Assembly (NCBI GenBank): GCA_963822445.1
Contig: CAWGHO010000002.1
Span: forward strand, 1,120,001-1,184,000
Length of the DNA: 64,000 nt
Origin: an uncultured Acidobacteriota bacterium
GTDB taxonomy: Bacteria > Acidobacteriota > Thermoanaerobaculia > Gp7-AA8
Direction of reading: 5' to 3'
Part shown: positions 31,085 through 35,533 of the stretch, in pieces
Numbering within the stretch: position 1 is the stretch's first letter
Layout: each line of letters opens with the position of its first letter
Notes under the pieces: model-generated
The model's database searches: none
Seen by the model: the letters and a program-made list of their open reading frames with translations, nothing else
Told to the model about the DNA's origin: nothing
Program-made: the position numbers and the translations under genes

Positions 31085-31772
31085 GATCGCGATAGTCGCG
31101 GGGAATGGTGAGCATCGCCTCCGGCACCTGCCGCGGGGCGATGCCGATGACCGCGCGGTCGATCACGCTCTTGCCCTTGCCGAACGGCAGCTCCGCCTTG
31201 TCGGCGAGCGGAAACCCGCGTGCGCGCAGCAACTCTTCATCGACGCGCTGCATGATCGGCGCGAGCGGCGACGCCGGCGGATCGCTGGCCAGCATCATCG
31301 CGAACAGCCCGTCGGGAATTGACGGGTGATCGCCGATCCAGAGCTCGCGGCGATACGCGCCGACCTCGATCACCGTCTGCTGCGCGTTCACGCCGTTCAT
31401 CGTCTTCCGCGAGCCGTGTGTCAGCTTCGCGCGCGGGTAGTGCGAGGGAATCGCCGCGGCGAGCGTGGCGCGGCGTCGATTGAGGAGCGTCTCCACTGAC
31501 TCCGTGCGAAAGGTCTTGTCGATGTCATCGACGAACGTGACGGTGTTCGCCTTCGTGTCGAAGAGCCGCCAGACGTCCTGCTCGCCGGTGCTGCGCGCGC
31601 GGCCGTTGGCGATGACGATCTCGTGATTCGTGGTCTGTTCGCCGATCGCCGTCCGGACGGTGACGACGGTCGCCGCAAGCTGCGGCCCGGCCCCCGGTTT
31701 TGGAGGCGGCTTCGGGGCGGGCTTGCACGCGATGGCGATCGCGAGGAGAAGTAGAAGAAGTCGGTGGCTCAC
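31041..31772 (-). CDS. Lipoprotein, DUF4412-like beta-rich
   Basis: Signal peptide with IAC lipobox, then beta-rich chain ending LTIPRDY. Confidence 0.65.
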   Translation of the reverse strand: MSHRLLLLLLAIAIACKPAPKPPPKPGAGPQLAATVVTVRTAIGEQTTNHEIVIANGRARSTGEQDVWRLFDTKANTVTFVDDIDKTFRTESVETLLNRRRATLAAAIPSHYPRAKLTHGSRKTMNGVNAQQTVIEVGAYRRELWIGDHPSIPDGLFAMMLASDPPASPLAPIMQRVDEELLRARGFPLADKAELPFGKGKSVIDRAVIGIAPRQVPEAMLTIPRDYRDLTPKPVPAKSPASR

Positions 31773-34414
31773 TCTTTGGCGTCGTACCAGCTTTTTCCCC
31801 AGTGCGCGTCCACTGCCAGCGGCACCGCGAGCGGGAAGACGTTCTCCATGGTCTCCTTCACGATCCCCGCCACCTCGGCCGCGCTCGCCTCGGGCGTCTC
31901 GATGACGATCTCGTCGTGCACGGTCAGCAGCATGCGCGGACCGTCGCGTCGCGCGCCGAGGTTCTTCTCCAGCGCGATCATGGCCATCTTGAGGATGTCG
32001 GCGGCCGTTCCCTGAATCGGCGCGTTCGTGGCCATCCGCTCGGCGTTGCCGCGAACGGTGAACGAGCGATTCTGAATCTCAGGGATGTAACGCACCCGCC
32101 CGAACAGCGTCGTGACCTTGCCCGTGTTGCGCGCTTCGTTCAGCGTTCGCTCGAGGTACTCGTGAATCATCGGATAGCGCGAAAAGTACGCGTCGATCCA
32201 GTCCTTCGCCTGCGCGGTAGAGATGCTCAATTCGTTCGACAGCCGGAACGCGGACATGCCGTAGAGCACGCCGAAGTTGATGACCTTCGCCGCGCGGCGC
32301 TGCTCCGCGGTCAGCTCTTCCGGCGGAATGTTGAACATCTTCGAGGCCGTGGCCCGATGGATGTCCTCGCCGCGGCGGAAGGTCTCGATCAGCGACTCGT
32401 CATTGGAGATGTGCGCGAGGATGCGCAGCTCGACCTGTGAGTAATCCGCGGAGAGCAGCGACCAGCCTTCATCGGCGATGAAGGCCTTGCGGATCTCCCG
32501 GCCGGCCGCGGTGCGGATGGGGATGTTCTGCAGATTCGGATCGGAGGACGAGAGCCGCCCCGTCGCCGCGACGGCCTGGTTGAACGTGGTGTGCACGCGT
32601 CCGTCCTTGCCGACGATCTGCGGCAACGCGTCGACGTACGTTCCCTTGAGCTTGTGCAGCTCGCGATGCTGGAGGATGAGCTGCGGCACCGCGTACCCGT
32701 GCGACGCGAGCTCTTCGAGCACTTCCACGCTCGTCGAGTAGCTTTTCGTCGTTTTCGTTTTCTTGATGACCGGGTACTGGAGCTTCTCGAACAGGATCTG
32801 TCCGAGCTGCAGCGGCGAGTTGATGTTGAACTCCTGCCCCGCCTCGGCGTAGATCCGCGTCTCGAGCTCGGCCATCTGCTTGCCCATCGTGTTCGACATG
32901 GAGCGCAGCAGATTGGCGTCGATGCGGATGCCCCGCTCCTCCATCGCCGCGAGCACGGGAAACAGCGGCATCTCGATGCGCTCGTAGATGTCGACGAGCG
33001 CCGGTTCGCGGCGCAGCTCGGGCTCGAGAGCCGTGCGCAAGGCCATGGCCACGTCGGACTTTTCGCCGAGGTAATCGACGTAGGGGCCGAGCTTCGTGGC
33101 GCCGATCTCGTGCTCGAGCGCGAAGAGCGGCGCGGTCTTCGCCACGTCCTTGCGCACGAGGACATCCTGCTTGAGGCGGTCGCGGGCGATGTTGCCGAGG
33201 GCGTGGCTGGGGAGGCCGGGGTTGATGACGTAGGAGATCAACATCACGTCGACCCAGCGCGTCGGAACGGGCCAGCCGGCCGCGGCCAGTCGTCGCGATT
33301 GCGCCTTCGCGTCGTACGTCACGAACTCGCGGTCCTGCGCGAAGAGCTCCTTCAGCGCGGGAACGAATTCGGGTTCGTTCGGAACCAGCAGCGACTCGGA
33401 AGGTTTGATCGAAAGCGAGACTGCCATCGGGGCGTCGAAGCCTTCGATCGTTTCCGGCTCGATCCAGACCGCGACCGCGCCGTCGCCTTTCACGAATTCG
33501 CGAACGTCATCGGCCGACGCGGCAATGCGGAAGTCCTTCGGCACCGCCGGCGCCTCGGGCAGAAACTCCTGCATCAGCGACGCGAACTCGAGCCTCGAGA
33601 AGATGTCGTGCAGCTTCGCGCGATCGGGCTCGGTGCGCTTGAGCGTCTCGAAGTCGATGTTCAGATCGAGATCGCATTTGATCTTCGCCAGCTCGCGGGA
33701 GAGGAAGGCCTTCTCGCGATTCTCCTCGAGCTTCTTGCGCATGGCCGGCTTGCCGACCTTGTCGAGATTTGCGTAGACGTCTTCGAGCGATCCGAACTCC
33801 TGGATGAGGCCTTTCGCGCCCTTCTCGCCGATGCCGGGGACGCCGGGGATGTTGTCGATGGCATCGCCCCAGATCGCCATCACATCGACGACTTTCTCCG
33901 GCGGCAACCCGAACGCCTCGGCCACGCCCTTCGCGTCGTACATCACCTCGCGGCCGGTGTGGTACAGGCGGATGCCGTCGCCCACGAGCTGGAAGAAGTC
34001 CTTGTCCGAGGTGGCGATGACGACGTCGTAGCCGCGGTCGCGGGCGGTGCAGGCCAGCGAGCCGATGAAGTCGTCCGCTTCCCATTCGATCGAGCGGATG
34101 ACGGGGATGCGAAAGCCGTCCAGGACCTCGTAGACCAACGGAACCTGCACGACCAGGTCGTCCGGCATCGGCTTGCGGTCTTTCTTGTAGTCGGCGAACT
34201 GGGAGGTGCGGGCCGTTTCCTGCCCCTCATCGAAGGCGACGGCGATGCAGTCCGGATTGTTGTCCTTGAGGAGCTTGCGGAGGGTGGTGACGAAGCCGTA
34301 GACCGCGTTCGTCGCGAACCCGGACGAGTTCGTCAGGTTCCGGATGGCGTAGTAGGAGCGGTAGATGTTGTTCGAGCCGTCGATGATGAAGAGGCTCGGG
34401 CGTTTCGAGGGCAT
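31769..34414 (-). CDS. polA: DNA polymerase I
   Basis: IIDGSNNIYRSY, EADD, GDAIDNIPGVPGIGEK, TGRLSSSDPNLQNIP, DYSQVELR, AKVINFGVLYG, VHDE. Confidence 0.97.
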   Translation of the reverse strand: MPSKRPSLFIIDGSNNIYRSYYAIRNLTNSSGFATNAVYGFVTTLRKLLKDNNPDCIAVAFDEGQETARTSQFADYKKDRKPMPDDLVVQVPLVYEVLDGFRIPVIRSIEWEADDFIGSLACTARDRGYDVVIATSDKDFFQLVGDGIRLYHTGREVMYDAKGVAEAFGLPPEKVVDVMAIWGDAIDNIPGVPGIGEKGAKGLIQEFGSLEDVYANLDKVGKPAMRKKLEENREKAFLSRELAKIKCDLDLNIDFETLKRTEPDRAKLHDIFSRLEFASLMQEFLPEAPAVPKDFRIAASADDVREFVKGDGAVAVWIEPETIEGFDAPMAVSLSIKPSESLLVPNEPEFVPALKELFAQDREFVTYDAKAQSRRLAAAGWPVPTRWVDVMLISYVINPGLPSHALGNIARDRLKQDVLVRKDVAKTAPLFALEHEIGATKLGPYVDYLGEKSDVAMALRTALEPELRREPALVDIYERIEMPLFPVLAAMEERGIRIDANLLRSMSNTMGKQMAELETRIYAEAGQEFNINSPLQLGQILFEKLQYPVIKKTKTTKSYSTSVEVLEELASHGYAVPQLILQHRELHKLKGTYVDALPQIVGKDGRVHTTFNQAVAATGRLSSSDPNLQNIPIRTAAGREIRKAFIADEGWSLLSADYSQVELRILAHISNDESLIETFRRGEDIHRATASKMFNIPPEELTAEQRRAAKVINFGVLYGMSAFRLSNELSISTAQAKDWIDAYFSRYPMIHEYLERTLNEARNTGKVTTLFGRVRYIPEIQNRSFTVRGNAERMATNAPIQGTAADILKMAMIALEKNLGARRDGPRMLLTVHDEIVIETPEASAAEVAGIVKETMENVFPLAVPLAVDAHWGKSWYDAKE

Positions 34415-34444
34415 GGACGCGGGATTTTATAGCTATGCCCTGAA

Positions 34445-34760
34445 AGCACTAACGGAGCCTTTCGGCTCCGTTTGTGGTAATGCGTTGGACCGCTGCGGCC
34501 AGTAGGTGGGGTTCAAGGAAGCTAAGTGAGTAATCGTCCAAAATCGGTCCAATAGTCAAGGAGGGAGCCCGCAGCGGCCACTTGGCGCAGGCGAATCAGA
34601 TGGGACCCGCGCAAGTGCGGTTTCGAGGTCTTGTTCGAAACCTGAATCATCGTGATCCTCGTCACTGCTAGATAGCTGCCAACTTCGGATTCCTGGCCGG
34701 AAATCGCGCCTGGTCGCGTCGCATCCAGCGAGCGCAACCGCCGAACTCTCAGCAATCAAG
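34445..34760 (-). ncRNA. Candidate structured non-coding RNA (family not recognised)
   Basis: Six near-contiguous hairpins ending in a GAAA-capped hairpin; wobble pairs form only on the minus strand; no convincing ORF. Confidence 0.45.
34451..34472 (-). terminator. Terminator-like hairpin just upstream of the polA -10 box
   Basis: AACGGAGCC-GAAA-GGCTCCGTT; the U tract is weak. Confidence 0.6.
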
Positions 34761-34835
34761 ACAGATATGGCGGTCGCTTGTGAAAAAAAGCGCAACCGAC
34801 CCGGTTCCGTATTCGTTGGAAACTTTTTCCATCAC

Positions 34836-34851
34836 TGGCTCTACGGTTGCA
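34836..34851 (+). promoter_or_regulatory. sigma54-like promoter for the outer-membrane protein gene
   Basis: TGGCTCTACGGTTGCA, 16 nt before ATG. Confidence 0.6.
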
Positions 34852-34867
34852 ATTCTGACCACCCGCC

Positions 34868-35533
34868 ATGAAGAAAAAACTGACCATCCCCTTCCTCCTG
34901 CTGGCTTTCGCCCTCCCGGCCGCCGCCCAGAACTGGAGCATCGGCGTCCGCAGCGGGGCTTTCGTCTTCGGCGACTTCGTCGAGCGCAGGCTCCGGCCGG
35001 CCGCCGGCGGGTCCGGAGATGAGCCAGTCACCTACACCCTGTCCGCGGAGACCCGCCCCGGGCTGGCCGTCGACCTCGAGCGCCAGCTCGGAGAGCGCTG
35101 GGCTTTCCGCCTGGAAGGCACGTTCACCACCTCCCCGCTGACCTTCGAGGACAGCTCCGAGAACGGCACGGACATCCGCTCCGGCGACATCGACGTCACC
35201 ACCTTCACCGTCCCGCTCGTGTTCCGGATCAACCCCAAGGGCGCCTTCCGCTTCCACCTCATGGCCGGGCCGGCCTACGCGATGTACAAATTCGAGCCGC
35301 CGGACCGCATCACGCCGATCACGGTGGCCGAAAGGACCCGCAACGAATGGGGTGCGATGGCCGGCGGCGGCATCACCTGGCACGTCAGCGAGCGATTCGG
35401 GATCGAAGGATCGATCTCCGACATCGTGACGACGTCGCCATTCGACGAGGGGGACACCGAGGACCTGCCCGGATTCGACATCCCCAAACCGCACAACATT
35501 CACACGACGGTGGGGATCAGATATCGCTTCTGA
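34868..35533 (+). CDS. Outer-membrane beta-barrel protein (OmpW-like)
   Basis: Signal peptide, alternating amphipathic strands, C-terminal GIRYRF. Confidence 0.85.
   Translation: MKKKLTIPFLLLAFALPAAAQNWSIGVRSGAFVFGDFVERRLRPAAGGSGDEPVTYTLSAETRPGLAVDLERQLGERWAFRLEGTFTTSPLTFEDSSENGTDIRSGDIDVTTFTVPLVFRINPKGAFRFHLMAGPAYAMYKFEPPDRITPITVAERTRNEWGAMAGGGITWHVSERFGIEGSISDIVTTSPFDEGDTEDLPGFDIPKPHNIHTTVGIRYRF

Follow-up and report, generated by a model that had tools for sequence, protein, structure and literature searches.

A putative sigma-54-dependent, dual-function small RNA encoded next to polA in an uncultured Acidobacteriota bacterium

In a 64,000-nucleotide stretch of the genome of an uncultured Acidobacteriota bacterium (Thermoanaerobaculia, Gp7-AA8; GenBank assembly GCA_963822445.1, contig CAWGHO010000002.1, positions 1,120,001 to 1,184,000; hereafter the window, whose numbering is used throughout), the intergenic gap between polA and a gene for an outer-membrane protein (OMP) appears, on well-supported comparative evidence, to hold a real and previously undescribed family of structured RNA. 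In the reading that we propose, and to which we give about an even chance, the gap carries one self-contained gene, present once per genome, whose product is a dual-function small RNA (sRNA) of about 215 nucleotides (nt) made under the control of sigma-54. The sigma-54 RNA polymerase, together with an enhancer-binding protein, would start transcription at about 34655, and the RNA would fold into two hairpins (SL1 and SL2) and a long-range stem (SL3) before hairpin termination at about 34443, ahead of polA. SL3 would present, as the working surface of the molecule, a 70-nt C/U-rich single-stranded loop with two UUGGAC copies and two CCUUGA boxes resembling anti-Shine-Dalgarno (anti-SD) sequences. 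This loop would pair with G/A-rich mRNA leaders, the candidate in the host genome being the leader of a wza-like polysaccharide-export gene, and it might also bind protein. The same transcript would be translated, from an AUG about 5 nt off its 5′ end, as a near-leaderless open reading frame (ORF) of 42 codons; more speculatively, ribosome passage and loop binding would be mutually exclusive. The predicted transcript, its helices and its terminator are as follows.

34441-34655, minus strand: predicted transcript of about 215 nt; start placed 12 nt after the C of the -12 promoter element, 3′ end just beyond the terminator.
34619-34642, minus strand: SL1 hairpin (GGUUUCGA / UCGAAACC); both-side changes in 7 of 8 pairs, 91.7% of the alignment cells paired.
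34585-34612, minus strand: SL2 hairpin (GCGCGGGU / GCCUGCGC); 99.5% of cells paired.
34488-34579, minus strand: SL3, an 11-bp stem (34569-34579 with 34488-34498) closing the 70-nt pyrimidine-rich loop (34499-34568); 98.5% of cells paired.
34443-34476, minus strand: predicted terminator, a 9-bp GAAA-capped stem (34451-34472) with a CAC/GUG extension (34474-34476 with 34447-34449), followed by CUUU; double changes in 6 of 9 pairs.

The homologous loci were collected by scanning species-representative genomes with the invariant loop motif, which yielded 110 stretches. Duplicates, truncated loci, two chance matches and two loci of genomes flagged as unpublished were then dropped to give an alignment (A1) of 102 sequences. 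The genomes flagged as unpublished (G025, G002 and G166) are counted in the BLAST, model-search and some of the locus tallies, and are excluded from A1, from the covariance model (R1) and from the ORF-frame tests; none of our conclusions rests on them. The pattern matches L110 (in a metagenome-assembled genome, MAG, labelled Henriciella) and L148 were rejected as chance, the rest of the RNA being absent from both. On A1, the four helices (SL1, SL2, SL3 and the GAAA-capped hairpin) form standard pairs in 96.1% of 3637 cells, as compared with only 34-40% when the partners are slid by 1-3 columns. Both sides have changed in 20 of the 36 pairs (146 cells), and the observed measures were reached by none of 500 shuffles. 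The helices were drawn from the host sequence, which favours them over the slid controls; independent of that bias are the GC-to-AU double changes at three pairs of SL2 (in 18, 25 and 24 sequences) and the CG-to-UA double change in SL3 (21 sequences). In the terminator, GGAGCC/GGCUCC has become GGACCC/GGGUCC or GGCGCC/GGCGCC. The hairpins that the original prediction had placed at 34619-34642 (GGTTTCGA/TCGAAACC), about 34585-34612, 34488-34498/34569-34579 and 34451-34472 are thus all present, and the homologue collection and covariation analysis that it had suggested gave double changes in each of these four helices.

The RNA had been assigned to the minus strand from imperfect pairs that are G-U there and A-C on the opposite strand, an assignment with which our data agree. 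Such G-U pairs are common (for instance in 95 of 102 sequences at columns 104/207), and a comparison with shuffled controls, another of the checks suggested earlier, revealed an excess of folding on the minus strand only. As compared with dinucleotide shuffles, the whole gap has a z-score of −3.44 on the minus strand (0 of 100 shuffles as stable) and −0.66 on the plus strand (23 of 100); against its own shuffles, 34441-34655 gives −4.22 (0 of 200) and −1.02 (33 of 200). It is extremely improbable that no RNA is encoded here and that the conservation reflects DNA-level signals alone, such as promoters and sites bound by proteins. The gap does have two sigma-54-like elements that point in opposite directions, with conserved palindromes upstream, and the block it shares with the wza-like leader can be read as GGAAC-N14-16-GTCCAA, which we take to be a promoter-like consensus; but compensatory changes in four helices and G-U pairs that fit one strand only point to an RNA, and the unit recurs intact in other genomic surroundings and is present in contigs from RNA libraries.

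The structured unit appears shorter than the about 310 nt originally proposed. Three further hairpins had been listed at 34688-34705, 34712-34739 and 34739-34754; the stretch that contains them (34656-34800) folds no better than its shuffles (z −0.85, 39 of 200), is variable even within the genus, has no match outside the genus and lies upstream of the predicted promoter. Since this stretch shows no excess of folding, is variable and lies ahead of the predicted promoter, the unit would comprise about 215 nt. Conservation in other genera starts at about 34658, and the match of the covariance model in the host genome spans 34439-34661. An alternative helix at the foot of SL3 (UUGGACCG with CGGUCCAA) was rejected, as the two segments are complementary here but not in the divergent members G038 and G065.

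Regarding its distribution, BLAST searches with the gap matched 37 of 61 relatives, among them 33 of the 34 in the genus, with 74-82% identity over about 430 nt. In three other matching genera (two in the same family and one in a sister family) only the part equivalent to about 34658-34438 was matched. The covariance model found exactly one copy per genome, with the following results.

Class sample (151 genomes): found in the host genome, in 33 of 35 genomes of family f1 and in 1 of 1 of the sister family f3; 0 of 114 in other families of the class.
Phylum sample (151 genomes): found in the host genome, in 4 of 4 genomes of family f1 and in 1 of 1 of the sister family f3; 0 of 145 elsewhere.

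The search filters of R1 were strict, so that weak relatives may have been missed. In the class sample, neither of the two genomes of genus g34 was matched. A third family of the same order (f2) gave a BLAST match in the one genome concerned (1 of 1). Among the genomes sampled, the predicted RNA was hence found only in one order of Thermoanaerobaculia. The relatives are labelled as Thermoanaerobaculia or Acidobacteriota MAGs and come mainly from soil; the host genome itself comprises 6.0 Mb with 64% G+C and is 94.7% complete.

No match to the whole window was obtained in Rfam 15 at gathering thresholds, and lowering the stringency to E-values of up to 10 over 34300-34950 returned only noise (snoR118, 18.4 bits versus a threshold of 44; P31, 17.1 versus 40). 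These results agree with the earlier statement that signatures of transfer-messenger RNA (tmRNA), RNase P, signal recognition particle (SRP) RNA or 6S RNA are not recognisable here; tmRNA, RNase P and 6S RNA are each located elsewhere in the genome. Being absent from Rfam, the family has been missed by genome annotation, and our search of the literature on sRNAs in Acidobacteria or Thermoanaerobaculia returned nothing relevant.

The elements that bear on the expression and function of the predicted RNA are the following.

34666-34681, minus strand: sigma-54-type promoter element (TGGCAGCTATCTAGCA), -24 GG at 34680-34679 and -12 GC at 34668-34667.
34522-34650, minus strand: 42-codon ORF encoding MIQVSNKTSKPHLRGSHLIRLRQVAAAGSLLDYWTDFGRLLT and a stop; AUG 17 nt after the -12 C and about 5 nt from the predicted start.
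34556-34567, minus strand: anti-SD-like box 1 (CUCCCUCCUUGA), which with the first UUGGAC box makes up the stretch complementary to the wza-like leader.
34532-34552, minus strand: tandem UUGGAC boxes (UUGGACCGAUUUUGGACGAUU), showing no synonymous change in homologues.
34513-34520, minus strand: anti-SD-like box 2 (UUCCUUGA), directly 3′ of the stop codon, in conserved columns.

From the following lines of evidence, we infer that the RNA is transcribed from its own sigma-54 promoter, with a start at about 34655. First, the element directly adjoins, on the upstream side, the point at which the conservation between genera starts. Second, of the 106 unique homologous loci, 104 have TGGC-N9-GC ahead of the RNA, and TGGC-N8-TGCA occupies the same position in all eight divergent matches of the covariance model; the spacing of GG and GC is fixed and the spacer bases vary. 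Third, an ATG follows the -12 C by 14-20 nt in 99 of 104 loci. Fourth, the element follows the -24/-12 rule for sigma-54 promoters as worded in PMC2831329, and its spacing is that of experimentally bound Salmonella sigma-54 sites, including those of the sRNA genes glmY and glmZ, among the sites described in PMC3844500. Fifth, the genome encodes rpoN (Sigma54_DBD match of 225.9 bits at C3:1663596-1664072). The -12 region of the host genome reads TAGCA and not TTGCA. Weighing against a sigma-54 promoter, an enhancer site common to all genera was not found upstream; the conserved upstream blocks (TTTTCACAAGCG and GGAAAAAGTTTCC) are of genus level and occur only where the OMP gene adjoins (35 and 22-28 of 79 loci). 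A simple scan of 34300-35000 detected no sigma-70-like promoter and lends, therefore, no support to the -10 box that had been assigned to polA.

At the other end, the covarying GAAA-capped hairpin, whose CAC/GUG extension appears in the minimum-energy fold, would act as the terminator. A point against it is the short U-run of the host sequence, where the tail is AGUGCUUU, or CUUU after the extended stem; relatives have 3 to 5 U. A simple terminator scan did not flag this hairpin. The sole terminator-like site that it reported in the gap is located at 34794-34806 on the minus strand (AACCGGGTCGGTT then GCGCTTTTTT), upstream of the RNA promoter, where it overlaps the conserved TTTTTTTCACAAGCG block; since its hairpin is not kept in relatives, this site is probably not a terminator.

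In the host genome the terminator ends about 27 nt ahead of the polA start. This proximity, together with the presence of polA downstream on the same strand in 73 of the 106 loci, some of them in relatives with a PolA of only about 55% identity, would suit a cis-acting polA leader in which a leader ORF and a terminator attenuate read-through. Such a leader is nevertheless very unlikely, because polA lies upstream and divergent in two loci, a SelD-like gene lies downstream in one full-flank locus (with a MoaD-like gene upstream), and the spacer between RNA and polA ranges from about 25 to more than 250 nt. In the other loci polA was not found in the flanks available, which are of only 300 nt in about 30 loci. 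Pairing of the loop GGCUCC with the 5′ arm of the terminator, as an antiterminator, was rejected for want of covariation: the loop GGCUCC is unchanged when the arm becomes GGACCC. With a downstream gene that is not constant and no covarying alternative pairing, the locus lacks the marks of a cis-regulatory leader or attenuator of polA. As polA is downstream in most but not all genomes, the RNA is, on this comparative evidence, a stand-alone gene, for which synteny with polA is frequent and not obligatory. The original prediction had likewise favoured a stand-alone RNA over a polA leader, a preference now backed by the promoter-like element, the terminator hairpin and the non-polA contexts.

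The 42-codon ORF spans SL1, SL2, the 5′ arm of SL3 and the boxes before it ends at a TAG within the loop, and with its AUG 17 nt past the -12 C the leader would be nearly absent. We consider that this ORF is probably translated, as suggested by the following comparisons. First, 96 of 102 sequences have ATG in the column of the AUG, and five of the other six have an in-frame ATG or GTG either 3 nt or about 13 codons downstream. Second, upstream of the boxes, 92 of 102 sequences have no stop for 30 codons or more in the AUG frame, as compared with 26 and 31 for the other two frames, and the region from the AUG to the boxes contains 11, 203 and 84 stop trinucleotides in the three frames (95 unique sequences; about 90 of the 203 are TGA overlapping the ATG). 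Third, of 19 divergent representatives, 17 still have an open frame of 37 codons or more starting at this AUG despite differing internal frames, versus 5.3 expected from shuffles, a contrast that a naive binomial test overstates because the sequences are related. Fourth, no frame is favoured upstream of the AUG (0 stops in 58, 58 and 31 of 90 sequences), which led us to reject a longer frame of 77 amino acids (aa) starting at a TTG. Fifth, a similar distance between the -12 C and an ATG is enriched at other sigma-54-like sites of this genome (see below).

Several observations weigh against translation. The entropy is flat over the codon positions (0.56/0.52/0.57); distinct indels are multiples of three in 8 of 44 cases in the ORF versus 15 of 59 in the 3′ part (p 0.48), and frame counts of 90 of 102 are due in large part to common ancestry and to three 3-nt indels that many sequences share. 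The codons are rare, especially TTT GGA CGA TTA ... ACT, in-frame stops occur in five unique sequences, and a subgroup of homologues has a stop after six codons. The flat entropy, the lack of a 3n-indel excess by distinct events, the rare codons and the early stops all suit a purely non-coding sRNA, the ORF of which would be a by-product of nucleotide conservation in G+C-rich sequence, and so do the strong constraints at the RNA level. We regard this explanation as unlikely, given the open frames of the divergent members, the unequal numbers of stops in the three frames, the nearly constant distance of the AUG from the promoter and the absence of a favoured frame upstream of it. A dual-function RNA fits better than a plain non-coding one because the 42-aa ORF, already flagged in the original prediction, is kept open across the family. 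Accordingly, the original prediction of a non-coding sRNA is retained as regards a structured RNA, and not as regards a purely non-coding one.

The peptide itself has no match in Pfam, NCBIfam or ESM Atlas, and among 5.8 billion proteins only 12 are gene calls of this ORF. We also weighed the possibility, which seems to us rather unlikely, that the transcript is a near-leaderless mRNA for a protein of about 42 aa, with hairpins and a loop that serve mRNA stability or translational control only and have no trans-acting function. The conserved AUG, the frame-specific openness, the 3-nt size of the widely shared indels, the alternation of the stop between TAG and TAA, the variation of some codons at the third position only (CTN, ACN, CCN) and the few gene calls (12 proteins) are consistent with such an mRNA. 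However, the peptide sequence is not conserved in distant members, where the C-termini are unrelated; the invariant 21-nt boxes are read in three frames across lineages; six codons show no synonymous change over about 100 species, and the conservation extends beyond the stop. Furthermore, the compensatory changes in the stems give non-conservative replacements, and neither the codon-position entropy nor the protein family searches point to a protein. Our reading is that, outside the core clade, it is the existence of the ORF rather than the sequence of its peptide that is conserved; as the ORF is kept and the peptide is not in distant relatives, the act of translation may matter more than its product.

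In a subgroup of the homologues (L050, L053, L078, L083, L112, L155, L217 and L089) we noticed a Shine-Dalgarno (SD)-like AAAGGAGG or AAGGAGG at the 5′ end; in some of them the loop of SL1 also has an early stop. The 5′ ATG is replaced by ACG in L050, L053 and L078, where an in-frame ATG occurs directly after SL1, the corresponding codon being GTG in L083. This arrangement resembles a split ribosome-binding site bridged by a hairpin.

The loop of SL3 is C/U-rich and G-poor. It contains, as claimed earlier, CUCCCUCCUUGA, UUCCUUGA and two UUGGAC copies, and it is nearly invariant in relatives, within the genus and beyond. The six codons over the boxes show 0 synonymous changes in 98 homologues, and the flanking codons vary; this invariance is partly due to ascertainment, since the homologue scan used this motif, but the members found by BLAST and by the model keep the boxes too. 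Among the divergent members, G038 has three UUGGAC copies, G065 has another spacing, and several lineages read the boxes in other frames. Being kept across frames and spacings in distant members, the boxes are constrained at the RNA level. As to possible protein partners, no match to CsrA (PF02599) was found in the genome (94.7% complete), and a CsrA/RsmA sponge was rejected on that ground and because there are only two GGA boxes. The sole Hfq-like match is marginal (29.5 bits versus a cut-off of 27, C2:2424184-2424342) and lies in an open frame of 173 aa.

Elsewhere in the genome, a single site matches the loop better than expected by chance (28 of 29 nt, C2:2430923-2430951, E 5.5e-5). It is flanked by a BBP2_2 beta-barrel gene and a Poly_export/SLBB (Wza-like) gene and is oriented such that the wza-like mRNA is complementary to the RNA over about 26 nt. 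The orthologous leaders of five other genomes of the genus have diverged overall but keep GGTCCAAT...AGGAG(G/T)GAGCCCGTTCCGCC. The duplexes predicted with each genome's own RNA have z-scores of −3.9 to −5.9 (0 of 200 mononucleotide shuffles of the leaders) in all five genomes tested, namely the host and four of the five leader genomes. The wza-like leader is thus a plausible, lineage-specific candidate target. Two results weigh against a wider role of this pairing: the exact leader element is present in only 4 of 124 genomes of the family (a few more by BLAST), and in a second genus (5 genomes) only chance-level target matches were obtained, the best one inside a coding region. Being rare in the family, the leader element cannot account for the family-wide invariance of the loop. 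An alternative reading of the leader block as a promoter of the extracytoplasmic-function (ECF) type was rejected because of a spacing that ranges over 14-16 nt and a poor fit of the window's plus strand. Just upstream of the complementary block we noticed an element like GGAACGGTAG that is conserved and reads GGGACGGTAGC in the host genome (C2; about 1530-1560 of L031), and which we take to resemble the ops/JUMPstart element of polysaccharide operons. If this resemblance is true, the wza-like leader would be transcribed and would be a site of antitermination control.

Taking these observations on the ORF and the loop together, the RNA might go beyond a dual function and operate as a riboregulator gated by translation, with an ORF that is kept for ribosome traffic and not for its peptide, a possibility that we hold to be quite unlikely. 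Translating ribosomes would melt SL1-SL3 and slow down on the invariant rare-codon tract UUU GGA CGA UUA, which is also the tandem UUGGAC surface, and the translation status of the cell would thereby set whether the loop is free for mRNA leaders (exopolysaccharide export) or for a protein. Such an RNA would be one case of a wider, so far undescribed habit of the lineage, the combination of sigma-54 promoters with leaderless mRNAs.

Six soil metatranscriptome runs contain 27-41% of the words sampled. In all four of the runs examined by contig, short contigs (147-182 nt) cover parts of 34448-34641, with one contig per run at least 99% identical. The ends of three contigs fall at 34640/34641 and 34509/34511 and are flanked by what is presumably Illumina adapter, and one contig ends at 34448, just beyond the hairpin. 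The contigs are compatible with an abundant short RNA, and are not proof of it: they show neither strand nor level, RNA libraries can contain DNA, and the runs were selected for containing the stretch. The contigs of these runs leave 34659-34867 uncovered, which is no evidence of absence. In one run (X19), a contig (depth 150.8) reaches 34448, has 5 additional letters and then continues from 34594, a step back of 147; a chimera, template switching, or a circular or concatenated form might account for it.

ORFs and domain matches agree with the siting of the gap, described originally as having polA on one side and an outer-membrane protein gene on the other; the gap measures 453 nt.

31769-34414, minus strand: polA, with DNA_pol_A and 5′-3′ exonuclease domains.
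34868-35533, plus strand: OMP beta-barrel gene, 221 aa.

Similarly to the RNA gene, the OMP gene has its own sigma-54-like element (TGGCTCTACGGTTGCA, 34836-34851 on the plus strand), which is almost invariant in the genus (block TGGTCAGAATTGCAAC). Its ATG at 34868 lies 18 nt past the -12 C, so that the OMP mRNA would be nearly leaderless and without SD sequence. The RNA gene and the OMP gene would thus constitute divergent sigma-54 units. Between the two promoters we observed two palindromic blocks, CGCTTGTGAAAAAAAGCG (34775-34792) and TGGAAACTTTTTCCA (34818-34832), the first conserved in 35 and the second in 22-28 of 79 loci, essentially the ones where the OMP gene adjoins; they may be sites for an activator or an architectural protein. 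Genome-wide, the 321 TGGC-N8-TGC[AT] sites show an enrichment of ATG 15-18 nt past the -12 C (14, 6, 3 and 8 sites, the background being about 3-4 per position). Long ORFs start at many of the ATGs at such sites, such as those of the OMP neighbour, a prepilin-like protein (C3:110335), signal-peptide proteins and a response regulator. Together, these data suggest that sigma-54 promoters commonly drive leaderless mRNAs in this organism.

Acidobacteriota are abundant soil bacteria with few cultured members, in which RNA regulators are almost undocumented. The present family would add one whose promoter type is clear and whose structure is defined; polysaccharide export supplies a candidate target, and its conserved mini-ORF encodes a peptide that is itself not conserved. 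The maintenance of a mini-ORF without conservation of its peptide raises the question of whether translation itself can be a selected property of a small RNA, and our finding also suggests that leaderless messages are transcribed from sigma-54 promoters in this lineage.

Candidate non-coding RNAs of the same phylum, Acido-1 (RF01686) and Acido-Lenti-1 (RF01687), are described among those obtained by comparative genomics in PMC2864571. Both are in Rfam and, unlike the RNA reported here, neither matches the region even at E-values of up to 10. In E. coli, the spf gene encoding Spot 42 lies downstream of polA and has a CRP-controlled promoter. Like spf, the present gene specifies a small RNA beside polA that can now be proposed to have a dual function; unlike spf, it has no Rfam match, and the shared polA neighbourhood is probably coincidental. 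Leader-peptide attenuators and arrest-peptide leaders, such as tnaC, offer another parallel, in that a short ORF whose translation, and not its product, could set the fate of a structured RNA is combined with a C-rich, G-poor tract past the stop. The present locus differs from tnaC-type leaders by a downstream gene that is not constant, the lack of a supported alternative pairing, its own predicted terminator and its behaviour as a mobile, stand-alone gene.

As regards its promoter, the gene resembles glmY and glmZ, each being an sRNA gene behind a -24 GG and a -12 GC with the same spacing as in sites given in PMC3844500. The present RNA shares no homology with GlmY and GlmZ and occurs in a different phylum. 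Qrr, CrcZ and NrsZ are further sigma-54-dependent sRNAs, and we know of no report of a conserved ORF at the 5′ end of any sRNA of this kind. By its organisation, the RNA is closest to SgrS/SgrT, SR1/SR1P, VcdRP and Spot 42/SpfP, with which it would share a short independent transcript, a terminator and an ORF of fewer than 50 codons next to a conserved segment suited to pairing; in the case of SR1, both functions are conserved across homologues, according to passages in the literature on dual-function sRNAs (PMC3526287, PMC12310071, PMC12612679 and PMC8672173). It differs from these sRNAs in having no sequence or Rfam relation to them, an ORF that shares sequence with the putative pairing region and with three of the four helices, a peptide that is not conserved in distant members, another promoter type and a predicted near-leaderless start. 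The predicted RNA is best read, nonetheless, as a family undescribed before that belongs to the known kind of dual-function small RNA.

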